10,617 nt of DNA from Candidatus Velthaea sp. (GTDB lineage Bacteria > Vulcanimicrobiota > Vulcanimicrobiia > Vulcanimicrobiales > Vulcanimicrobiaceae). Position numbers and translations under genes: made by a program. This document shows positions 75 to 10,070 of this stretch, one piece after another. Position 1 is the stretch's first letter. The number at the start of each line of letters is the position of its first letter. Location: assembly GCA_050012475.1 (NCBI GenBank), contig JBEKHC010000130.1, forward strand, positions 1 to 10,617. Reading direction: 5' to 3'. The notes beneath the pieces were generated by a model. That model was not told where the DNA came from, made no database searches, and worked only from the letters and a program-made list of their open reading frames with translations.

Positions 75-116
75 TAATCCATTAGGTTGCTTGCGAGTTC
101 GCAAGCATTTCAATTG
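75..116. promoter_or_regulatory. Palindromic operator-like sites upstream of the operon
   Basis: Perfect inverted repeat TGCTTGCGA-gt-TCGCAAGCA (88-96/99-107), flanked by TAAT-cc-ATTA (75-84) and CAATTG (111-116), in an AT-richer stretch just upstream of the probable start codon. The function is inferred. Confidence 0.4.
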
Positions 117-143
117 CAACTGAGCTTGTACCGGGTGAAGTAC

Positions 144-1934
144 GTGCGTAGACGCCTCGGACGACGTGTATTTTCCTATGCCGCGAACGTGCTGCTGGTC
201 CTCCCGCTTGGCGGATGCGCAGCGCTTCAAGAGCCAGGCCCTTCTCTCGCCCTCGAGTCGCTGCGCGAGCCCGGGCAGCGTATTGCCGATGCGGCAACGC
301 TGGCCGGCGCAGCCCTTGCGAAGCGCCTATCGTTCGCCGTTGCAAGAACCGTATCGCGCCGGCCCGCAGCGGTCGATCTGCCGAACGTTTATGATCGTGC
401 ATTGCCCGCTGCCGCTGCAGGCCTCGTGCCTTCTCCGACGGGGTTCAGCGCGCGCCTCACTGGGGGCAATCATCAACTCGCGCTTTCGGCCCCGGCGATC
501 GCGGCGGCGTATCGCTATCATGCAAACGCTGCGCAATGGGCCGGTGACGACCGCACAGCCGTCAACGTGCTCAAAAAGCTCCTCGCACTCGACGCCGCGA
601 ATTCGGCGGGTTGGCTGCGGCTGGCGCGGCTGCAGGCGCAGCTGCGCGATGAGACCGCGGAACTCGCGTCGTTGGGTCTTGCCTTGCAATACAACCCGGC
701 GAATGATGCTGCGCGCGCCGAGCGCGGCGAACTCTTGCTGCGCCTTGGCCGGCATTCCGCAGCCCTCGCCGACTTCGCCACGTACCTCTCGCGTCACGCC
801 GGCGCGATCGACGTGTTGCGCATGCGGGTCGAAGCCGCACGCGACGCGCAAGATCATCAAGCCACCCTTGCCGCCATCGACGCATACCTCGCCGTTGCGC
901 ATGAGGATGTGGCGATGCTGCGCTTGCGCGGAGACGAACTCGAAGCCGAGGGCGATGAGAACGGAGCGATCGACGCTTGGAAGGCGTACGCCGAACGCCG
1001 CCCGGCCGACGACGCCGACGTCCTCAAACAGATCGCGTACGCAAGCGAACGCCGGCAAGACTTGTCGACCGCGGTCTGGGCACTGACACAATACACGCGC
1101 GAGCGGCCGTCCGACGACCGCATGAAACTGGCGCTGGCGTACGACCAGGCTCGGTCGGGTCATTCCGATCTTGCCGTCGCCGCCTTCACCTTGCTCCAGA
1201 AGTCACCCGACGAAACCGTCGCCAATCAGGCTGCGGCCGAATTGCGGGCAAGACTGGGCGGAGCCTTGCACAGCTCGCGCGTCGCCTATGCCACGGTGCA
1301 ATACGATTCACGGTTTGCGAACACCGTGTTCGGCGTCGACGCTTATGCGCTGGCGCCCGCTCGGCGGCTCCAACCGTACGCAGTCATTCACTCGTGGGAC
1401 GACACGCGCTCGTCTGACCGGGCTCAAGAACCATTGATATACAATGACGATGGCGAGGTCTTCGGCGGCGGCGTTCGATACAATATTGGAACGCGGGCGG
1501 GGAGTTACTTTTTCGCCGAAGGCGGCGAGCAGATCAGCTTGATCGGACGGGGTACCAGTCCGGAGTTCCGCTACGGGTTCGCGTCGTGGTCGGAGCGCGG
1601 TAGCGCCGCCGGCGGCCACACGTCATACGGCTTCAGCGTCGCATCGTATTCGCGCTATGGCGCCAACGTGATCGGCTATAGCAACATCCTGCACGATTTC
1701 CCGCTCACCTCGGGCTTTCGCGGCGTCGTCGGAACCAATTTCGCGCTGGATAGCCATCGAGAGTATTGGAACAACGTCGCCGAAGTCGAAGTGGGCGTCA
1801 AGGTCGGCTCCCCGCGGTTCTCGGTTACCTTGGCTGGTGTCGACGGCGTGTATCTCCCGCGCGGGGCCGCCGTTCCGTTCCACCGGTCGTATACCACCTT
1901 CCGTCCATCGATTACCTGGAGCCCGCACCTGTAG
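144..1934 (+). CDS. TPR-repeat protein with C-terminal beta-barrel; NfrA-like polysaccharide export porin, probably a lipoprotein
   Basis: Long ORF (the track gives TTG 87; GTG 135 or 144 is more plausible). From GTG 144 it reads MRRRLGRRVFSYAANVLLVLPLGG|C (Cys codon 216-218). The middle has TPR-like helices (LALDAANSAGWLRLARL, LQYNPANDAARAERGELL, RPSDDRMKLALAY). The region from about 1275 has alternating aromatic/Gly beta strands (VFGGGVRY, YFFAEGG, YWNNVAEVEVGVKV). The stop abuts the nfrB-like ATG (TAG-ATG). Confidence 0.8.
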   Translation: MRRRLGRRVFSYAANVLLVLPLGGCAALQEPGPSLALESLREPGQRIADAATLAGAALAKRLSFAVARTVSRRPAAVDLPNVYDRALPAAAAGLVPSPTGFSARLTGGNHQLALSAPAIAAAYRYHANAAQWAGDDRTAVNVLKKLLALDAANSAGWLRLARLQAQLRDETAELASLGLALQYNPANDAARAERGELLLRLGRHSAALADFATYLSRHAGAIDVLRMRVEAARDAQDHQATLAAIDAYLAVAHEDVAMLRLRGDELEAEGDENGAIDAWKAYAERRPADDADVLKQIAYASERRQDLSTAVWALTQYTRERPSDDRMKLALAYDQARSGHSDLAVAAFTLLQKSPDETVANQAAAELRARLGGALHSSRVAYATVQYDSRFANTVFGVDAYALAPARRLQPYAVIHSWDDTRSSDRAQEPLIYNDDGEVFGGGVRYNIGTRAGSYFFAEGGEQISLIGRGTSPEFRYGFASWSERGSAAGGHTSYGFSVASYSRYGANVIGYSNILHDFPLTSGFRGVVGTNFALDSHREYWNNVAEVEVGVKVGSPRFSVTLAGVDGVYLPRGAAVPFHRSYTTFRPSITWSPHL

Positions 1935-3356
1935 ATGGCGATTTACTCCGGGCAGTTCGCCGTCATCATCGATACGGCGATCTTCATCCTTGCCATCGGC
2001 TACTTACTCCTGAGCGTCGACGATGTTCTCCTCGATCTCGCCTTTTACGTTCGCGGAATGATCAGGTGGTTCACCAAGCGCGACAGCATCTATTTCGATC
2101 GGACGAAGCTCGCCTCGAAACCGGAAGCGCGTATCGCGATTTTCATTCCGTGCTGGCACGAGGCCGATGTCGTCGAGCAGATGGTCAGCTTGGCGTTGCG
2201 CCGAATCGAGTACGACCGGTTTGACATCTTCGTCGGCGTGTACCCCAACGACCCCGAAACGCAGGCAAAAGTGGACATCGTTTGCGCGCGGGCAAAAAAC
2301 GTCCACAAAGTGGTCAACCCGCGGCCGGGCGGAACGACGAAAGCCCAAAACCTCAACGCCGTCTATGACTACATGTGCGCGATGGAGGGTGATGACCCGT
2401 TCCAGATCATCGTCTTGCACGACGTCGAAGACGTCATCCACCCGATGTCGCTGCGGCTGTACAACTGGTACATGCCGGAAAAAGACATGCTTCAGATCCC
2501 GATCTTCCCGTTGCCGCGCAAGCCGCGTTTCGTCACGGCCTGGACGTATGCCGACGAGTTCACGGAGAATCATCTCAAGGATCTGGTCATCCGCGAGGCG
2601 ATCGGCGCGTTCGTTCCGTGCGCGGGCGTTGGCTGCGGTTTCGGCCGGAATTGCCTCGACCTTTTGCGCGCCGTGCACCGCGGTGACGTGTTCGGCGACG
2701 GTGCGCTCACCGAGGACTATCAGCTCAGTCTCGAAATCAAAGTCAGCGGCTTCAACGTCGGCTTTGCCAAAGACGTTCTCGTCGACGGCATGCAGGGCAG
2801 CCACCCGGCGCCGTGGTCGCGCAAAGAGTACATTGCGACCCGGGCGTACTTTCCGGACACGTTCAAGACGGCGGTGCGTCAGAAGACGCGCTGGATCACG
2901 GGCATCTGCCTCCAAACGTGGCAGATGCGCGGCTGGTGCGGCAGCCTCCCCGTGCGGTATGCGCTGTATCGCGATCGCAAGGGGATGTTCGGTCACGTCG
3001 CATGTTTCGCGGGCTACCCGGTCATGATCGCGGCCTTCAGTCTGAGTATGTGGCACGCGGCCGACCCGCACGTGGTCGTCGCGGTCTTCCGGCATACCGC
3101 GATGATTTACGATCTGCTCTACTCTGTACTCGCCGTTTCGGCATGGCGGCTAAGTCAACGCGCGATTCAAGTCGCGCGCCTTTACGGTCCGGTCGCCGGC
3201 ATCCTCTCCATCGTGCGCTTCCCGTGGGGGAACTTGGTCAACGGTATCGCCACCTTTCGCGCGGTCTACCGCTACTTCTACTCCCGCGTGAAGCGCGAAG
3301 CGCTGACGTGGTCGAAAACGGCGCACGTCTTTCCAACGGAAACCAACGGTTCATGA
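1935..3356 (+). CDS. nfrB: NfrB-family processive glycosyltransferase (GT2), short form
   Basis: NfrB hallmark motifs in order: PCWHE, GVYPNDPET, RPGGTTKAQNLN, HDVEDVIHP, QIPIFP, DEFTENHLKD, VPCAGVG, LTEDY (2706-2720), QKTRW (QxxRW, 2880-2894), RDRKG and terminal WSKTAHVFP. N- and C-terminal transmembrane segments are present. Confidence 0.92.
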   Translation: MAIYSGQFAVIIDTAIFILAIGYLLLSVDDVLLDLAFYVRGMIRWFTKRDSIYFDRTKLASKPEARIAIFIPCWHEADVVEQMVSLALRRIEYDRFDIFVGVYPNDPETQAKVDIVCARAKNVHKVVNPRPGGTTKAQNLNAVYDYMCAMEGDDPFQIIVLHDVEDVIHPMSLRLYNWYMPEKDMLQIPIFPLPRKPRFVTAWTYADEFTENHLKDLVIREAIGAFVPCAGVGCGFGRNCLDLLRAVHRGDVFGDGALTEDYQLSLEIKVSGFNVGFAKDVLVDGMQGSHPAPWSRKEYIATRAYFPDTFKTAVRQKTRWITGICLQTWQMRGWCGSLPVRYALYRDRKGMFGHVACFAGYPVMIAAFSLSMWHAADPHVVVAVFRHTAMIYDLLYSVLAVSAWRLSQRAIQVARLYGPVAGILSIVRFPWGNLVNGIATFRAVYRYFYSRVKREALTWSKTAHVFPTETNGS

Positions 3357-3418: not shown

Positions 3419-3541
3419 CGCTGCGTTCTGCGGAGATGACCGCAGCGACCTTCGATTGATCAACGATTCCGCTGCAGCGCCGGTTTGTCGGCGCTGCCAA
3501 CTGCAAGTTCTCCCGCGCCGGAGTGCTTTTTTCGACGCGGG
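3419..3541 (+). promoter_or_regulatory. Structured intergenic leader (hairpins, terminator-like element)
   Basis: Hairpin CTGCGG/CCGCAG (3428-3445); 9-bp stem GCAGCGCCG/CGGCGCTGC (3474-3497); short stem CTCC/GGAG (3510-3523) followed by T6 (3527-3532). Confidence 0.4.
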
Positions 3542-3562
3542 CTTCTAAACGAGGATTCGACT

Positions 3563-5467
3563 GTGGAACGTCATCTCCGAATACGGCTTATTGCCGCCAT
3601 TCCGCTACTCGCACTTGCGGCCTGCAGCGGTGGCGGTTCATCCACCAACTCGCTGCCGACAACGGGGTCCGCGGGGATCGCTGCGGGTAGCGAAACATCC
3701 ATTGCCGCACTGGCTGCGAAGAAAAACAAGACCCATCGCCCGGAAGAGACACATGGCGACGGCATCAAAGATAATCTGCTCAACGGGTATGCTGCTTACC
3801 AGGCGGGCGGAGAAAAGAGCCGCAAACAGCATCGAGCGACCGCCGCCGAAGAAGAGCTGACCGCGAGCGTCGCGCGAACCGCGGCCTCGGATGTTCGCCG
3901 GACGCTCGCAACCGGTGCGAGCGGAGCCCTCGTGTTATACGATAATACCGGGCCGTACGCGTTTCTCGGCGAGCTGTACGCCCAGGGAATCGCCAACCTT
4001 GCCGGTCACTTCGGCACGTTCAAAGCCGAACCGATCGCCTCGTATACCAGCGGGCAAGTCAATCAATATGCCGCAACGTTCTACGCCGGATCGACGTACT
4101 CGTCGAGCACGACGGACTTTCCGGCCGCCTTCTACACCGACATCGCCGCGACGACGAAGCCCGTGGTGTGGTTGGGCGACAATATTTGGAACTACGCGAA
4201 CGCGATCGGACCGGCGGCGTTCGAGGCCAAGTACGGCTGGGATGCGACGAACTCGTATTTCACGACCGGCGCTACGAGCGTGACGTACAAGAGCCAATCC
4301 CTCACGCGCACGTTTCCGGCCGGTACCGATGCGGGCGTGATTGCCGCCGACATTTGCACGAGCGCCTGTGCCTCGCAGGGACCGGCGGTCACGACTTTGG
4401 CGACGGCGGTGACCAGCACGTCGAGTTTCCCGTGGGCCGTCCGCTCGGGCAATCTCACCTACATCGGCGAAGTCCCGTTTGCTTACGTCAGCGAATCCGA
4501 CCGCATCGTCGCGTTGCACGACCTGATGTTCGATGCGCTGGCCCCGACGACAGCGACTCGTCATCGTGCCATCGTGCGGCTCGAAGATCTCGATGCGGGC
4601 GATAGTCCGACCGATTTGCTCAACGCCGCAGCCTATCTGAAGAGTCAAGGCGTTCCCTTCCAAATGGCCGTCATTCCCCAGTACGTCGATCCGCAAGGCG
4701 TCGACTCGGGGACCGGCAAGCCCACCTACTATTCGCTCGCGCAGGCGCCCACCGCGTTCATTTCTGCGGTCAAGACGGCGCTGACGGAAGGCGGTACGCT
4801 CGTCGACCACGGGTACACGCACGAGTATAGCGTCGGCGATGGTCCCAACGGTGCCGGCGGCGCGTACGTTCCGGGCACCGCGGTAAACAATCCATATGAC
4901 GGCATCAGCGCCGACGACGCCGAGTTCTTCCTGGCCAGCATCAACGCATCGAACTCCGTCGTCTGGAACGGCCCGATCCCCGTGGACTCCCAGGCCTGGG
5001 CGCAGCTGCGCGTGAACGCGGCACTGGCCGAGTTCGCGGCAGTGGGACTCCCGGCGCCGACCATGTGGGACACGCCGCACTACTTCGCGACCGATCGCGA
5101 CTACCGCGCGATTGCAACGCGCATCGCCGCCCGTTACGAACGTTCGCTCTACTTTACGGGCACACTGTCCGGAGCGGCGATCAACTACGGCCAGCTGATC
5201 GGACAGTTCTTCCCGTACAAGGTCACGGATGTGTACGGAACGACGGTCATCCCGGAAGATCTCGGCGACTATGAACCAGTTGCCGAAAATAACAACCCGC
5301 CTCGGCTGCCGGCGCAAATCATCGCCAACGCCCAAGCCAACCTCGTCGTGCGTGACGGCGTGGCCAGCTTCTTCTATCATCCCTACTACGGAACGACCCC
5401 GCTGTCCCAGATCATCACGGGGATCAAGGCGCTGGGTTACACTTTCGTAAGCGCGAGTTCACTGTAA
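3563..5467 (+). CDS. DUF2334-type (NodB/CE4-like barrel) polysaccharide deacetylase lipoprotein, paralog 1
   Basis: GTG 3563 with SD GAGGA at 3551-3555 gives a signal peptide with lipobox LALAA|CSGGG. Deacetylase motifs RLED (4577-4588), HGYTH (4808-4822), TPHY and RDGVASFFYHP (His 5378-5380) follow an N-terminal alpha/beta domain (ALVLYD...GELYA...WLGDNIW). Confidence 0.85.
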   Translation: MERHLRIRLIAAIPLLALAACSGGGSSTNSLPTTGSAGIAAGSETSIAALAAKKNKTHRPEETHGDGIKDNLLNGYAAYQAGGEKSRKQHRATAAEEELTASVARTAASDVRRTLATGASGALVLYDNTGPYAFLGELYAQGIANLAGHFGTFKAEPIASYTSGQVNQYAATFYAGSTYSSSTTDFPAAFYTDIAATTKPVVWLGDNIWNYANAIGPAAFEAKYGWDATNSYFTTGATSVTYKSQSLTRTFPAGTDAGVIAADICTSACASQGPAVTTLATAVTSTSSFPWAVRSGNLTYIGEVPFAYVSESDRIVALHDLMFDALAPTTATRHRAIVRLEDLDAGDSPTDLLNAAAYLKSQGVPFQMAVIPQYVDPQGVDSGTGKPTYYSLAQAPTAFISAVKTALTEGGTLVDHGYTHEYSVGDGPNGAGGAYVPGTAVNNPYDGISADDAEFFLASINASNSVVWNGPIPVDSQAWAQLRVNAALAEFAAVGLPAPTMWDTPHYFATDRDYRAIATRIAARYERSLYFTGTLSGAAINYGQLIGQFFPYKVTDVYGTTVIPEDLGDYEPVAENNNPPRLPAQIIANAQANLVVRDGVASFFYHPYYGTTPLSQIITGIKALGYTFVSASSL

Positions 5468-5482
5468 CGGATCGCGCCTGCA

Positions 5483-5542
5483 GAGCAGACCGCGGAAGAA
5501 TCGGGCCAGCTAAGCTGGTCCCGAGGACGCCGCGGTCTGCTC
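5483..5542. terminator. Long GC-rich hairpin between convergent genes (terminator or RNA-stabilising element)
   Basis: Perfect 13-bp outer stem GAGCAGACCGCGG (5483-5495)/CCGCGGTCTGCTC (5530-5542), a 5x5 internal loop, and an inner stem TCGGG-CCAGC-taa-GCTGG-t-CCCGA (5501-5524). No U-tract directly follows it. Confidence 0.6.
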
Positions 5543-5544
5543 GA

Positions 5545-5588
5545 AACGAAGCCGTACGCGGTTTTGAACGAAGTCGTATGCGGTTTTG
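5545..5588 (+). repeat. Tandem 22-bp direct repeat (2 copies)
   Basis: AACGAAGCCGTACGCGGTTTTG (5545-5566) and AACGAAGTCGTATGCGGTTTTG (5567-5588), with two C-to-T differences. Confidence 0.85.
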
Positions 5589-5606
5589 CCGGGAGGCGAG
5601 TCTGAG

Positions 5607-6530
5607 TCAGTCGGGATCGCCGATGACCATGATGTCGACGACCGATCGATCGTTGCCGTTTGCGGAGGTAACGACACAGGCGGACCTCGACGGCTCGACG
5701 CGCAGCGGGACGTGTCCGCTGCCCTCACTGTTCGCGACGCAGACCGGCGTTGCGGTGTAGCGATGAGGAAACGTGAAAACCGCTCGTCCCCCGCTGAGCG
5801 TTGCGCGGGTGGCAAATTGATCCGGCCGTGTTTGGGCGAGTCGAGCGGCACGCGCGGTGCCGGCGACCGACATATTCCCGTCGCGATCGACGTCGAGCAA
5901 GTCGCTGAAATCGCTCGCGCGCACGCGCGCCGATCCCGGATTTGCGCGCAGCCGCCTGACCTCGAACTCGTCGCTGGTAATGTCGATACCGGCGATCCAG
6001 CTGGCCCGGCCGGTGACGTCGAAGCCGCTAAAATCGCCGAACACGTTCGACTCGAGTCCGATGAAGCGATGCTGGCCGTCGGTTGTGTTGACGACCCGGC
6101 CGAACGGCGCGGCGTTGTTCCCGTCGATTTCGATCGTATTGCCGCCCACGACGACCGATTTCCATTGGGTAACCGTAAGTCCAAGATTCCAACCGCACGA
6201 TGCCGTTATTCTCTCGAACGCACGCGGGCAATCGGCGCGGCGCGTCCAAAAGCCGACGGCGCCAGTTTTCCCTTCGTTGGGCATGTAGCCGCTGTCGTTC
6301 ATCCAAAGTGCAAACGATGCGTGTGATGGATCGGCGGCGAACCATGACGTGCCGTCAAATGACGCGTTCGTCGTCAGCCACGTGTCGCCGCCAATGCGGG
6401 AGATCGCTGTACGATCGGGCGCAGGCTGCGCCGCAGCGGTGCTTTGAGCGACGATGCTCTCAGAGGGCACAGCGACAAAACACGCCGCCAGTATCAGCGC
6501 TGCTTGGACCGACCCAATCGTACTGCGCAG
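5607..6530 (-). CDS. Hypothetical exported beta-rich protein with phage tail-fibre-like features
   Basis: The track ORF 5607-6470 reads as a real protein (aromatic, Gly/Asp/Asn-rich beta pattern), unlike the overlapping frames. The frame stays open upstream to TGA at 6582-6584. CTG at 6530, preceded by GGGAAAGGA, adds a signal peptide MRSTIGSVQAALILAACFVAVPSESIVA. The start codon and product call are uncertain. Confidence 0.65.
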   Translation of the reverse strand: MRSTIGSVQAALILAACFVAVPSESIVAQSTAAAQPAPDRTAISRIGGDTWLTTNASFDGTSWFAADPSHASFALWMNDSGYMPNEGKTGAVGFWTRRADCPRAFERITASCGWNLGLTVTQWKSVVVGGNTIEIDGNNAAPFGRVVNTTDGQHRFIGLESNVFGDFSGFDVTGRASWIAGIDITSDEFEVRRLRANPGSARVRASDFSDLLDVDRDGNMSVAGTARAARLAQTRPDQFATRATLSGGRAVFTFPHRYTATPVCVANSEGSGHVPLRVEPSRSACVVTSANGNDRSVVDIMVIGDPD

Positions 6531-6561
6531 AGCCGCTTTCCTTTCCCAGAAATAGGAAGGT

Positions 6562-7164
6562 ATGACGAGTGTTGATTTTCCTCATCCGCAATGGTTCGAC
6601 CTCGAATGTTTCGACGGTTTCGGCCGCATCGCCGTTCTCCAGTGCGACGGGAAGGACTGTCTGACGCTCAAGCCGATGACGTCGACTTCTGCGGGCGAAA
6701 CGCATGCGGCCCTCACGACGTCGGCGATCGGATACGAGGATTTCGAGGCCACGTTTACCGACGTCGTCACGATTGAGCAACTGCGCGAGCGCGATGCTCC
6801 CAACGCTTGGGAACGTGCGTGGCTGCTTTGGCGGTTTGTCGATCGGCGGCACTTTTACTATCTGATTCTCAAAGACACGGGTTGGGAACTCGGAAAAGTC
6901 GACCCCGCTTATCGCGGCGGTCAACGATTCCTGGCCACCGCAGACGAGCCGCGGTTTCCGGTGGGCCTGCCGAACAACGTTCGCATTCGGCAGCTCGGAA
7001 ACGCCATGACGATTTTTGTCGATGACGAGCACCTCATCTCGTTTGCCGACACCGCTGATGCTGCCGTCGACGGCTCGGCCGCGTTCTATCCGGCCGGCCG
7101 GTTTGGATTCTACTGTGAGGACGCGTTCGTCCGGTTCGGCGGCTTCTCGGTCAGGTCCGTATGA
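6562..7164 (+). CDS. Concanavalin A-like/DUF1080-like beta-sandwich protein (putative carbohydrate-binding or -active)
   Basis: ATG with AGGAAGG upstream (6554-6560). Motifs ETHAAL, QLRE..PNAWERAWLLW, FYYLILK..GWELGK, QRFLAT, VRIRQ.GNAMTIFVD and GRFGFYCEDA are typical of a ConA-like sandwich. ATGA overlap with the next gene (7161-7164). No signal peptide. Confidence 0.75.
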   Translation: MTSVDFPHPQWFDLECFDGFGRIAVLQCDGKDCLTLKPMTSTSAGETHAALTTSAIGYEDFEATFTDVVTIEQLRERDAPNAWERAWLLWRFVDRRHFYYLILKDTGWELGKVDPAYRGGQRFLATADEPRFPVGLPNNVRIRQLGNAMTIFVDDEHLISFADTADAAVDGSAAFYPAGRFGFYCEDAFVRFGGFSVRSV

Positions 7165-8996
7165 TAAGTCCCGGCGTGCTTCTCCGATCCAGCCGGATCA
7201 TCTGCCGGGCGGCGGTTCTGGTTGCCGGGGCAACCGTCCTCGGCGCGTGCGGCGGCCGCGGGAGTTCGCTGCCGGCCGTCGCGGGCGTCGCTCGAACAAA
7301 TGAAGAAACGGGCGCGAACGCCTATCGGCACGACGGCGTCAAGCCGGCGCTGCTCGCAGGATATGGGCAAAGCGAACGGCAGGCCGAACGCCGCCGGATC
7401 GCCGGCGTTCGCGGTCCCGTTCGACCTGCCGGTGCGCACGGGCAGCGCTTCGCGGTGCGGCGCCCAACTAGCGGCACCGGATCCCCAGCGGCCCCAACGT
7501 CGGCGCTCGTCCTCTATGACGGGGGCGGACAATGGAACGATCTCGGCGAGTTGTACGCGGCGGCGACGGCAAATCTGTGCGGTCATTTCGGCGCAGTCAC
7601 GATCGAGCCGGTGGCAGCATATGCCGCTGGCCAGATCGCCGCTGCCACCGCCACGATCTATATCGGATCCCAGTATTCGACGTCGCCCGCCGATTTGCCG
7701 GCGGCGTTCTTTGCCGACGTGGTCGCGAGCGTGCATCCCGTGCTCTGGCTTGGCGACAACATTTGGGATCTTGCCCAAGCGGTCGGTCCGCAAGATTTCG
7801 TTCTGCAATACGGCTGGGATCCGATCCATTCATATTTTGCGCCCGCCGGCGGCGTAACGCAGGTGCTCTACCAAGGACAGACGCTTACGCGCAGCGTGCC
7901 GCCGCAGGACGATCTGGGCGTGATCGTGCCGGCTTTGGTCGACGGATACTCGGGCGCTTTGAGCGTCGTCGCAACGGCGGTGAACACCGGCAGCTCGCCG
8001 CAAACGACATTCCCGTGGGCCATTCGCTCGAGTAATTTGACCTATATCGGCGAAGTGCCGTTCACGTATCTCAACGAGACCGATCGGTTAATCGCGCTCG
8101 AAGATATCCTGTTCGATCAGCTTGCTCCGCTGACGCCGGCACGGCACCGCGCGCTGGTGCGGCTCGAAGATCTCGACGCAGCCGACGACATGGAGCAGAT
8201 TCGCGCAACGGCCGACTATCTCTACGGCGCCGGTGTCCCGTTCGGCTTCAACGTCATTCCGCAATACGAAGATCCGCTGGGCGCCCATAACAACGGCGTT
8301 CCGCGCTCGGTGTCCTTGCCCGGGGCACCGGCACTCGTGTCGACGATTGCCTATCTCCGGTCGCACGGCGGCACGCTGATCGAGGAGGGCTACACCCATC
8401 AGTACGACAGCCGTCTCAATCCGTACTCCGGAGCGAGCGGAGACGACGCTGAGTTTTTTCTCGCTCATCTCGACCCGAACGCCAATGTCGTTTGGGATGG
8501 CCCGGTACCCGAAACGTCGGCGAGTTGGGCCCTGGCTCGGGTTGATGCCGGCGTAGCGGCATTTCGCTCCGTCGGACTGCCGGCTCCGGCTTTGTGGGTA
8601 ACGCCCCACTACTTTGCAACGGACGTCGACTACGCTGCGGTGGCCGCGCGGATCGGGGCTCGCTACGAGCGGTCGATCTACTACGCCGGCACCGTTGCGG
8701 GGACCAGTCCGGACTACACGCAGTATATCGGGCAATTTTTTCCCTATATCGTAAACGACGTCTACGGAACAAAAGTAATCCCCGAGAATCTCGGGGATTA
8801 CCAGCCGTTAGCCGAAAACGGTCATCCGGCCCGTTTGGCGGCCGATATCGTCGCCGCCGCGAAAGACAACCTTGCGGTGCGCGACGGCTTCGCCAGCTTT
8901 TTCTACGATCCGGCGAAGGGCATCGACGCACTGCAAACGACCGTCACCGGCATCAAAGGTTTGGGTTATACGTTCGTCGATCCGGGATCGCTTTGA
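7161..8996 (+). CDS. DUF2334-type deacetylase-like lipoprotein, paralog 2 (substituted active site)
   Basis: Collinear with paralog 1 throughout (ALVLYD, GELYA, WLGDNIW, FPWAIRSSNLTYIGEVPF, RHRALVRLEDLDA, TPHYFATD, IGQFFPY, RDGFASFFY, GIKGLGYTFV). Lipobox VLGA|CGG. Translationally coupled to the upstream gene by ATGA. Confidence 0.85.
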   Translation: MISPGVLLRSSRIICRAAVLVAGATVLGACGGRGSSLPAVAGVARTNEETGANAYRHDGVKPALLAGYGQSERQAERRRIAGVRGPVRPAGAHGQRFAVRRPTSGTGSPAAPTSALVLYDGGGQWNDLGELYAAATANLCGHFGAVTIEPVAAYAAGQIAAATATIYIGSQYSTSPADLPAAFFADVVASVHPVLWLGDNIWDLAQAVGPQDFVLQYGWDPIHSYFAPAGGVTQVLYQGQTLTRSVPPQDDLGVIVPALVDGYSGALSVVATAVNTGSSPQTTFPWAIRSSNLTYIGEVPFTYLNETDRLIALEDILFDQLAPLTPARHRALVRLEDLDAADDMEQIRATADYLYGAGVPFGFNVIPQYEDPLGAHNNGVPRSVSLPGAPALVSTIAYLRSHGGTLIEEGYTHQYDSRLNPYSGASGDDAEFFLAHLDPNANVVWDGPVPETSASWALARVDAGVAAFRSVGLPAPALWVTPHYFATDVDYAAVAARIGARYERSIYYAGTVAGTSPDYTQYIGQFFPYIVNDVYGTKVIPENLGDYQPLAENGHPARLAADIVAAAKDNLAVRDGFASFFYDPAKGIDALQTTVTGIKGLGYTFVDPGSL

Positions 8997-10070
8997 TCAG
9001 TTGTACGACTCCAGTTCGGTCAGCAACGGCTTGCTCGTCGGAACGCAATCCTCGGCGAAATACCACCAGAAGTCGCCCCCGACGAAGCGTGGGATCGCCG
9101 GAAACTGCAAGCCGTAGTAATACTGCATGATATTCTCGGCCTGGCTGAGGTTAGAAGACGTCGCTGGATTGTCCATGCCGATTTCGCCGAAACCGATCTG
9201 CGCGTTCGGAAAATCTGCCGCAAGCTGCGAGAAAAGCACATTCCATTGCGCTTGCGTGGGCCGGATGCCGTTGTTGTCGGTTTCGTAGTAGGAAACCAGC
9301 ACGTAGTCGAGCCCCGCGTGCATGTCGCTGGGAACATTCGCCGTGTTTTCTTCCCACGGAATCATGTCGTAGCCGGGGGTGACCGTCTGGGGCGGCTCGT
9401 AGTACAGCGTCATTTCGGTCTTACCGCCGGCGGCTTTGACGGCGCTGAACGATTCATGAATTTTCGCCGGAACGTCGGAGCCGAGCCATTCGCCGTTGAC
9501 CTCGTTTCCGATCTCCCAAACGTCCACGCTGCTTCCCAGGGTGGACAAGTACTGGTTGGTGCGGGTAAGTACCGAGGAAACCGAGACGGAACCGATGTCC
9601 GATGAGTCGAGCAGCTCGCCCATCGTGTAACCGACCGCGTCGAATTGTTTGATCGCCTGCGTATAGTAACTCGCCGACTCTTGGCGATCGAAGACGACGC
9701 GGGTGACGGGATTTTTGAGCAAAGCCAAGGACGAAACGACTCCGCTCGCGTTCGATATGTCGTCGACGGTAACGCCGAGCATCGGCTTGGGTAACGTTCG
9801 TCCGCTAACCGGCGAACTCGAGGGTTGCGGCGTCGGTGATGGCGACGGCGACGGCGACCCATGGCGATGTCCCAGCGTCCCTAAAGCGGCGTCGTCGACG
9901 GCATCGGCCGGAGCGGGTCGCGCGAATCGGCGCAGCGCGTGTTTTGCTGCAACCGACGAGTTCGACGTTGCTGACGCCGATGCGGTTGCATCGCTCGGCG
10001 GCAACGACGAAGGCGCGGCGTTACAGCCGGCCAAAAGAGAAACTAACAATACGGCAAGACGTCTACGCAT
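8997..10070 (-). CDS. Lipoprotein with putative clan GH-A (TIM-barrel) glycoside hydrolase domain
   Basis: Lipobox LLAG|C (Cys 10023-10025), a Ser/Ala/Pro linker, then GVTVDD, RVVFD, VWEIGNEVNGEW (NE acid/base motif, Glu 9501-9503), LDYVLVSYY, IGFGEIG (candidate nucleophile Glu 9183-9185) and GGDFWWYF. Confidence 0.75.
   Translation of the reverse strand: MRRRLAVLLVSLLAGCNAAPSSLPPSDATASASATSNSSVAAKHALRRFARPAPADAVDDAALGTLGHRHGSPSPSPSPTPQPSSSPVSGRTLPKPMLGVTVDDISNASGVVSSLALLKNPVTRVVFDRQESASYYTQAIKQFDAVGYTMGELLDSSDIGSVSVSSVLTRTNQYLSTLGSSVDVWEIGNEVNGEWLGSDVPAKIHESFSAVKAAGGKTEMTLYYEPPQTVTPGYDMIPWEENTANVPSDMHAGLDYVLVSYYETDNNGIRPTQAQWNVLFSQLAADFPNAQIGFGEIGMDNPATSSNLSQAENIMQYYYGLQFPAIPRFVGGDFWWYFAEDCVPTSKPLLTELESYN
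9835..9858. repeat. Hexamer repeat encoding Ser-Pro linker
   Basis: GGTGAT-(GGCGAC)x3 on the + strand encodes SPSPSPSP in the minus-strand lipoprotein. Confidence 0.7.

Follow-up and report, generated by a model that had tools for sequence, protein, structure and literature searches.

The window, that is, the whole stretch of DNA analysed here (10,617 nucleotides), is an entire contig (C130) of a 5.36-Mb genome of Candidatus Velthaea sp., and at least half of its words are present in six sequencing runs, all of them peat or soil metagenomes. Its first gene (87-1934, plus strand) encodes a protein with TPR matches and a conserved C-terminal half, homologues of which adjoin nfrB in most loci; this product is probably an NfrA-like outer-membrane exporter, with the putative barrel suggested by position and sequence pattern. 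The next gene (1935-3356, plus strand) encodes a 473-aa NfrB-type GT2 synthase with DVED, TEDY and QKTRW motifs. With 429 bits against NF011305 (cut-off 409), it places a processive GT2 synthase of the NfrB group in the window, yet it stayed below the cut-off of NF008411 (NfrB) at an E of 3.6e-119, and it lacks the c-di-GMP-binding MshEN domain that is present in the NfrB of genome G231. Among the NfrB homologues (window 1935-3356 and loci L034-L059), short forms of ~470-490 aa without MshEN occur alongside long forms of up to ~980 aa, and some genomes carry two nfrB genes or one that stands alone, with no nfrA-like neighbour (L070, L071, L076). Two DUF2334 proteins, which we take to be deacetylase-like, are encoded on the plus strand at 3485-5467 (PF10096, E 2.1e-41) and 7161-8996 (PF10096, E 3.5e-40); none of the papers listed in a literature search mentioned DUF2334. 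The second protein gene is preceded by a gene for a DUF1080-like beta protein (6562-7164, plus strand; weak PF06439 match, E 0.052), counterparts of which (40-45% identical) occur in four other nfr loci, and is followed by a lipoprotein-like ORF (8997-10070, minus strand) with motifs that we presume to be glycoside-hydrolase-like and that adjoins DUF2334 in two other nfr loci (48-53% identity). Both of these genes recur in nfr loci of the family (G214, G388, G119, G351), without a solid family assignment. A WecB-family gene is present in the genome, on a contig other than the window.

Between the first DUF2334 gene and the DUF1080-like gene, antisense to the surrounding gene run, lies the gene considered here, referred to as the fibre-tip gene (5607-6530, minus strand; 307 aa, single copy in the genome). 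All motifs that a preliminary description had cited for a tail-fibre-like ORF at this place (positions 51, 158, 211, 251 and 298) fall within this one 307-codon open frame, and the ORF is real. Translation starts at a CTG (6530) preceded by the Shine-Dalgarno-like sequence AAAGGAAAG (6536-6544, minus strand), which sits in the 31-bp gap (6531-6561) common to this gene and the divergent ATG start at 6562, itself preceded by such a motif. Since the gap is only 31 bp, any promoters must sit inside the opposite gene; a promoter and terminator scan around the gene gave results near shuffle level (1 promoter vs. 0.3 expected, 5 terminator-like elements vs. 2.3). Automatic gene callers miss the CTG start: a default ORF finder chose GTG 6470 instead, and the gene call in the protein database is a 231-aa form (P0003) without the signal segment. 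A contig from an independently assembled DNA run (X2) spans 4838-6422 with zero differences from the window, and the junction between the fibre-tip and DUF2334 genes is therefore no assembly artefact. Contigs of a metatranscriptome (run X20) cover 5590-5803 and 6015-6193, but these were not counted as expression because DNA carry-over is possible and a second RNA run had no coverage of the gene.

Residues 1-28 (6447-6530, minus strand) are predicted by a hydrophobicity heuristic to form a Sec signal peptide, likely cut after SIVA, and the structure model described below places a helix at residues 2-17, inside this segment. Because shorter gene calls leave the segment out, the signal peptide in the window depends on the rare CTG start and on homologues. 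The signal rule (hydrophobicity, not SignalP) was passed by 14 of 17 family rows, the other three having a hydrophobic core and a doubtful start call, and seven homologues start with an ATG and a hydrophobic segment. The protein was also considered as a conserved lipoprotein, which was rejected: the signal segment contains a lipobox-like LAAC, but such a motif is found in just 3 of the 17 rows. The two cysteine pairs that had been read as compatible with export, Cys101/Cys112 and Cys264/Cys285, both occur in 17/17 family rows. The former is found in 1 of 88 distant rows and is a gain in the family, in keeping with an oxidising compartment, and the latter is common to 11 of 12 tip-only proteins. 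There is no beta-barrel or conserved anchor in the protein, and to cross the outer membrane it would have to be exported along with the polymer or through type II secretion.

The fibre-tip protein had no match in Pfam, NCBIfam or PHROGs, three profiles of it gave only chance matches to PDB sequences, and its matches in the ESM Atlas, all <0.9, serve as leads only. A structure model was built from 118 rows, namely 17 family members, 1 fragment, 88 of the shorter double-knob proteins and 12 tip proteins, and reached a pLDDT of 88.9 and a pTM of 0.69; a first model from 11 rows (pLDDT 56.9) was used for cross-checking only. This confident model predicts a signal-peptide-like segment followed by two tandem knobs and a lectin-like tip. 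The top four distinct entries in a Foldseek search were the fibres of R1 pyocin (E 1.6e-5) and R2 pyocin (4.7e-5), Bd2133 (9.6e-4) and the Mu fibre (1.4e-3), with low whole-chain TM-scores of 0.17-0.20 because the monomer model leaves the relative positions of the domains unfixed. In VIA, residues 40-305 aligned in order onto residues 373-691 of the R2 fibre (6cl6), with domain-level Z of 8.3-9.4, and a BFVD search with the model returned 54 matches at E<=1e-3, many of them named tail or fibre proteins. The fibre-derived fold of the preliminary description, with knobs and a lectin-like tip, is thus borne out by the best Foldseek matches and the ordered match to R2, and the predicted fold is related both to fibres and to lectins.

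Knob 1 (residues 40-133; 6132-6413, minus strand), which harbours the family-specific Cys101/Cys112, superimposes on 7chu with Z 8.9 and rmsd 2.3 over 78 aligned residues. Knob 2 (residues 134-225; 5856-6131, minus strand) opens with an E-x-D-G...P-x-x-R motif common to 93-100% of the 88 distant modules, ends with an LLDVDRDGN hairpin, and matches 7chu with Z 6.6 and rmsd 3.2 over 75 aligned residues. It is the same stretch of 7chu, 397-480, that is matched by residues 40-133 (Z 8.9) and, in the first model, by residues 141-224 (Z 6.6). The two loosely repeated modules noted earlier are therefore clear in structure and faint in sequence, where hhalign of the two halves scored 17.7 (E 0.006, probability 6%) and the highest score among 30 column shuffles was 15.5. 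The earlier assignment of LLDVDRDGNMSVAGT to a shaft-like segment, on the other hand, does not stand, as it is the closing hairpin of the second repeat. A shaft domain was rejected accordingly: knob 2 is connected to the tip by about 7-10 residues (linker, residues 226-232; 5835-5855, minus strand), the length of which varies among homologues.

The tip (residues 233-307; 5610-5834, minus strand) is predicted to be a lectin-like beta-sandwich with Cys264/Cys285 and the invariant residues R242 and E269, which are candidates for a putative sugar site of the kind that H-type lectins have between protomers. It was closest to the Pam1 tailspike (7eea; Z 9.4, rmsd 2.3, 67 aligned), and further matches were the R2 fibre (6cu2; Z 8.3, rmsd 3.2 over 78), the K64-1 depolymerase (9k4a; Z 8.3), the K1 lyase (7w1c; Z 7.1), AP22 gp53 (4mtm; Z 7.0, rmsd 2.6 over 77), discoidin (2w94; Z 6.0) and Helix agglutinin (2ccv; Z 5.5). 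Values of Z < 8 can reflect a common arrangement; the eleven best rows consist entirely of fibres and tailspikes apart from one H-type lectin. The matches to gp53, discoidin and the agglutinin agree with the gp53-like or H-type-lectin-like tip proposed beforehand. At the level of sequence profiles, the H_lectin Pfam (PF09458) matched neither the fibre-tip protein nor 14 tip homologues, and PF21882 (Gp53-like_C) matched 2 of these 14 (best E 0.013) and not the fibre-tip protein. The N-terminal domain that attaches fibres to the particle is absent, with the signal-peptide-like segment and a short linker in its place.

A profile search of 1.84 billion representatives returned 247 proteins at E<=0.001. 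Among the 150 matches listed, a handful were full-length, most covered only residues ~37-228 within longer proteins, and a smaller set had only the last 70-100 residues; homologues of the fibre-tip protein were 38-78% identical. Fibre-typical Pfam domains were found in ten of the 84 matches scanned (S74 in 3, Mtd_N in 2, and PTR, Collar, Gp77, collagen and C1q in 1 each), and 10 of 35 double-knob proteins scanned matched PHROG tail families. In viral contig L090, the double knob forms part of a 1432-aa fibre whose gene is flanked by one for a central tail fibre J and one for fibre assembly, and tip-only matches lie on a contig with portal and terminase genes (G376) and on one with an endolysin gene (G237). 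The double-knob module (P0016, P0018, P0020, P0023 and others) comprises ~180 aa with conserved NAxxDG...W and GGxxxExDG...PxxR motifs and occurs in >100 unannotated proteins of ~160-1650 aa; neither Pfam nor PHROG has a model for it, and it represents an unannotated fibre building block. The 17 family rows formed one clade in a quick tree of 104 double-knob sequences (SH-aLRT 100, stem 0.83), which names no donor since the tree is quick and its root arbitrary. The full-length family had no match in IMG/VR viral contigs, P0021 had none among GenBank phages, and a metagenome scan for the fibre-tip protein recovered nothing beyond a copy of the window itself. A direction from phage to host is suggested by the broad spread in phage fibres as against the narrow range of the family.

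The signal rule was also passed by 15 of the 88 distant and 8 of the 12 tip-only proteins. On viral contig L077 a signal-bearing relative directly precedes terminase, portal, scaffold and major head genes, and in G376 three signal-bearing ORFs adjoin terminase and portal genes. The signal peptide had been read as a mark of domestication, a proof that we rejected: relatives encoded by phages carry one too, and that of the fibre-tip protein therefore probably arrived with the gene. Signal-like, fibre-like ORFs were seen in several viral or prophage contigs (L077:7647-8405, L031:7695-12910, L085:9293-15687, L089:7712-12019), often several in a row and near terminase/portal or structural genes; a literature search on such ORFs found nothing. 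Either these phages export fibre-like proteins by Sec, or the genes are cargo for the host surface, and how phages use these proteins is a separate question. If true, donor fibres exported by Sec would run counter to the usual view of fibre folding and attachment in the cytoplasm. The origin that we infer for the gene is one early capture in the family, from a phage whose fibre-like genes already had signal peptides, followed by later loss from many nfr loci.

Of 348 genomes of the window's family (phylum Vulcanimicrobiota), 9 have full-length copies, that of G396 being split in two, and 3 have tip-only matches; one more tip-only match came from 37 other genomes of the class. Three genomes deposited as Acidiferrales or Binatia (L022, L024, L025) were placed here in the window's family. 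A match to nfrB was present in 23 of the 348 genomes (this count and the denominators include G264 and G368, flagged unpublished), that is, in 8 of the 9 genomes with the fibre-tip gene vs. 15 of the 339 others. The exception, G359, has its copy at a contig end, followed by a DUF2334 and an NfrA-like gene. Eight of the nine full-length copies abut nfrA, nfrB, bcsB or DUF2334 genes, so the link of homologues to glycan genes of this kind, on which the preliminary description had staked its proposal, was recovered. They do so in four gene orders: that of the window; bcsB-nfrB-fibre-DUF2334-nfrA in G231; fibre-nfrA divergent from nfrB-DUF2334 in G303 and G302; and bcsB-nfrA-nfrB-fibre beside AlgX and MBOAT genes in G395 and G396. 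Stop and start codons at the fibre-tip gene overlap or abut in G231, G303, G302 and G395. A profile scan of genome contigs gave five related loci. In G397 (L072:7755-8715), a single deletion took the 3' end of nfrB together with the fibre-tip gene except for its last ~28 codons, which now adjoin the remaining 5' part of nfrB, and this remnant was the only other fibre-like gene found with four profiles in 18 nfr stretches. In the same genome bcsB is missing upstream of nfrA. As the nine genomes are kin from five genera, the linkage amounts to about four independent observations.

These data bear on whether the gene is a mere passenger, a stranded phage or tailocin gene riding with the locus without a functional link to it. 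Its antisense position inside the window's gene run, with a divergent gap of only 31 bp, and the copy in two pieces in G396 would fit such a passenger. However, eight of the nine genomes have an intact copy (38-46% identity), and the gene evolves with dN/dS well below 1 (0.13-0.21 in the closest pairs and 0.13-0.53 over 28 pairs, values limited by dS near saturation, pS 0.52-0.70). Its GC3 of 0.73 is like that of its six neighbours (0.71-0.81), and in other loci it is co-oriented and coupled with the glycan genes. In G396 nfrA is split as well, which suggests sequencing error. The observation that no other phage genes lie in the window proved correct and extends to the genome, which is 94% complete and has no match to the hallmark families Terminase_6N, Baseplate_J and Phage_sheath_1 or to five phage probes. 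A role as part of a tailocin encoded elsewhere in the genome was rejected for want of a sheath or baseplate J match. The passenger explanation is highly improbable and already largely refuted.

The fibre-tip gene diverges about as slowly as NfrB, with dN values for fibre/NfrB of 0.55/0.56, 0.57/0.53, 0.29/0.27, 0.49/0.43 and 0.22/0.12 in linked pairs. This congruence could be plain vertical descent, and it also bears on the idea that the protein serves as a shield against phages, either by coating a glycan used as the first phage receptor and so competing with phage fibres, or by origin as a superinfection-blocking protein of a prophage. The Nfr glycan of E. coli is indeed a phage receptor (PMC8669472), signal-bearing relatives sit beside terminase and portal genes, and presence among genomes is patchy. 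Against this, the slow divergence shows no sign of an arms race and makes masking less likely than binding of a constant ligand, and a receptor role for the window's polymer is putative, its NfrB being below the NfrB cut-off and without MshEN. We consider the shield distinctly unlikely.

The gene is an accessory, being absent from 15 of the 23 nfrB genomes. On an NfrB tree with 23 rows, from which two unpublished and two partial ones had been dropped, its distribution needs four changes, and it is missing from an 11-row clade. Two intact copies lie apart from any synthase of their own. That of G169 (L007:10083-10952) stands amid unrelated genes with an nfrB of the fibre-less clade 15 kb off, and that of G393 (L028:1939-2787) has a BcsB fragment next to it, in a genome (84% complete) where no NfrA-like match was seen; both are apparently orphans left after loss of their own nfr genes. 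In the double-knob tree, the G169 copy has a branch of 0.39, compared with shorter ones of 0.11 and 0.22 for the copies of the two genomes most closely related to G169.

This distribution weighs on a function as a periplasmic export helper, in which a trimer would bind the nascent chain and guide or protect it between NfrB, the DUF2334 or AlgX modifiers and the TPR part of NfrA. A Sec-type signal without a device for passing the outer membrane, translational coupling to nfrA, nfrB or DUF2334, and the non-essential periplasmic third protein of E. coli, YbcH (PMC8669469), all speak for such a helper. Most nfrB genomes nevertheless do without the gene, two genomes keep it without a synthase of their own, and a multi-site fibre tip would seem better suited to surface binding than to threading of a chain, leaving this function rather unlikely.

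The orphan copies would fit an adhesin for a foreign ligand, displayed with the matrix and binding a plant or moss glycan or another microbe, with the locus supplying both glue and hook. The protein outlives loss of its synthase in two genomes and stays alike while the modifying genes vary, and the MAT fibres of Bdellovibrio are phage-like adhesins for other cells (PMC10769870), one of which, Bd2133, ranks high among the fold matches. A foreign ligand is spoken against by the close coupling with synthase and exporter genes, kept across four rearrangements, and by the co-deletion with nfrB in G397, and the single copy and constant tip are unlike the diversified MAT set; we regard such an adhesin as unlikely.

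Our preferred reading, to which we assign a probability of roughly 0.5, is that the fibre-tip protein acts, once secreted, as a trimeric lectin on the polymer of its own locus. The linkage through four gene orders, the co-deletion in G397, the congruent dN and the single clade speak for it; the absence from 15 of 23 nfrB genomes and the two copies without a synthase of their own speak against it. Starting from the open frame, the predicted fold, the linkage, the slow congruent divergence and the lack of phage context found, we infer every further step of the mechanism. The protein would be exported by Sec, as the hydrophobicity heuristic suggests, and its conserved cysteine pairs would form two disulfides. 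By analogy with its fold class, the top fibre matches being trimers and knob sheets meeting at the threefold axis (PMC6116203), it would probably assemble into a disulfide-stabilised homotrimer through the knob sheets and the tip. Such a trimer would present several sugar sites to the polymer, binding being suggested by fold class and gene context, and would tether or cross-link the matrix as an optional accessory lectin. As precedents, sialic acid is bound by a knob of K1F (PMC6116203), and in R pyocins truncated fibres attach to target cells and the foot has been proposed as a sugar-binding domain (both PMC6363177). A lectin fold need not mean sugar binding, however, because in KP32 gp38 the lectin-like domain is described as serving trimerisation and another module as driving capsule binding (PMC13082707). 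The modifying neighbours differ (DUF2334 vs. AlgX/MBOAT), and the polymers may thus differ while the fibre-tip protein stays alike. In G395 (L027:8710-9714, 16527-20000), the nfr locus is bordered not by DUF2334 but by two AlgX-family genes and one MBOAT gene, which suggests an acetylated version of the polymer in this genus.

The preliminary proposal of a domesticated fibre acting as a secreted lectin thus keeps its fibre fold, its signal-like N-termini and its linkage to nfr genes, and loses the shaft and the signal peptide as a sign of domestication. More tentatively, and at odds that we would put well below those of the lectin itself, a phage receptor-binding tip may have been captured once and fixed as a self-glycan lectin of Nfr-type operons, with soil phages that have Sec-exported fibre-like proteins as donors. 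If true, a phage part for gripping glycans has been turned into the host's own matrix cross-linker. Small and probably soluble, the protein could serve to probe Nfr-type glycans, and it allows a direct test of whether receptor-binding proteins are reused by hosts in organising or shielding the sugar on their own surface. Bacteria are already known to encode phage-like fibres that act as parts of weapons (pyocins) or as adhesins for prey (Bdellovibrio MAT); a free-standing fibre tip in an exopolysaccharide operon was not found in the literature searched, which covered few subscription journals.

Lectins of the biofilm matrix, for example Vibrio RbmC/Bap1, Pseudomonas CdrA/LecB and Rhizobium RapA, bind and cross-link the exopolysaccharide of the cell that secretes them, and to our knowledge none of them is a knob-knob-tip fibre. 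The job proposed for the fibre-tip protein is like theirs, with no homology to them detected here. The lectin-like tip has the same fold as H-type lectins (Helix agglutinin 2ccv, discoidin 2w94, SLL-2 3wmp; Z 6.0-5.2), but no H_lectin Pfam match, and as the C-terminal domains of tailspikes (Pam1 7eea, K64-1 9k4a, K1 lyase 7w1c, LKA1 4ru4; Z 9.4-6.9), but the enzymatic beta-helix of the latter is missing. As in the NfrB-NfrA-YbcH system of E. coli, the glycan receptor of phage N4 (PMC8669469, PMC8669472), the GT2 synthase adjoins a putative TPR exporter, and the WecB-family gene of the window's genome is a further likeness to a system whose polymer is postulated to be ManNAc-based; the BcsB and acetyltransferase neighbours of the relatives recall Achromobacter (PMC8669472). 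Unlike the E. coli system, the window has an NfrB without MshEN and has DUF2334 genes. The available text of the two E. coli papers, in which the chemistry and purpose of the glycan are postulates, mentions no fibre or lectin gene.

The Bdellovibrio MAT proteins (Bd2133, 8ond; PMC10769870) are likewise chromosomal, signal-bearing and phage-fibre-like, with tips described as adhesive. They measure ~1,000 aa, form a set of 21 paralogues with diverse tips and are directed at prey, whereas the fibre-tip protein has 307 aa, a single copy and a constant tip, and belongs to a polysaccharide operon. According to the published description, a MAT has a ~130-aa beta-rich domain after the signal peptide, whereas knob 1 of the fibre-tip protein begins ~12 residues past the predicted cut. 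In the R fibre, a rod leads into two knobs, after which come a shaft of 70 residues and a lectin-like domain, and the knob sheets are buried in the trimer interface (PMC6116203). The fibre-tip protein corresponds to this layout without the rod and the 70-residue shaft, and it shares with the R1/R2 pyocin (6cl5, 6cl6, 6cu2), Mu (5yvq) and AP22 gp53 (4mtm) fibres the order of knobs and then a lectin-like tip at 9-17% identity. It differs from them in having a signal peptide and two cysteine pairs and in lacking a particle anchor, an adjacent chaperone gene and tail or other phage genes; its neighbours are glycan genes and not a phage or tailocin tail cluster. The protein is therefore neither a virion fibre, for it has no anchor, shaft or tail cluster, nor a MAT, yet it resembles the distal part of the R-pyocin fibre.
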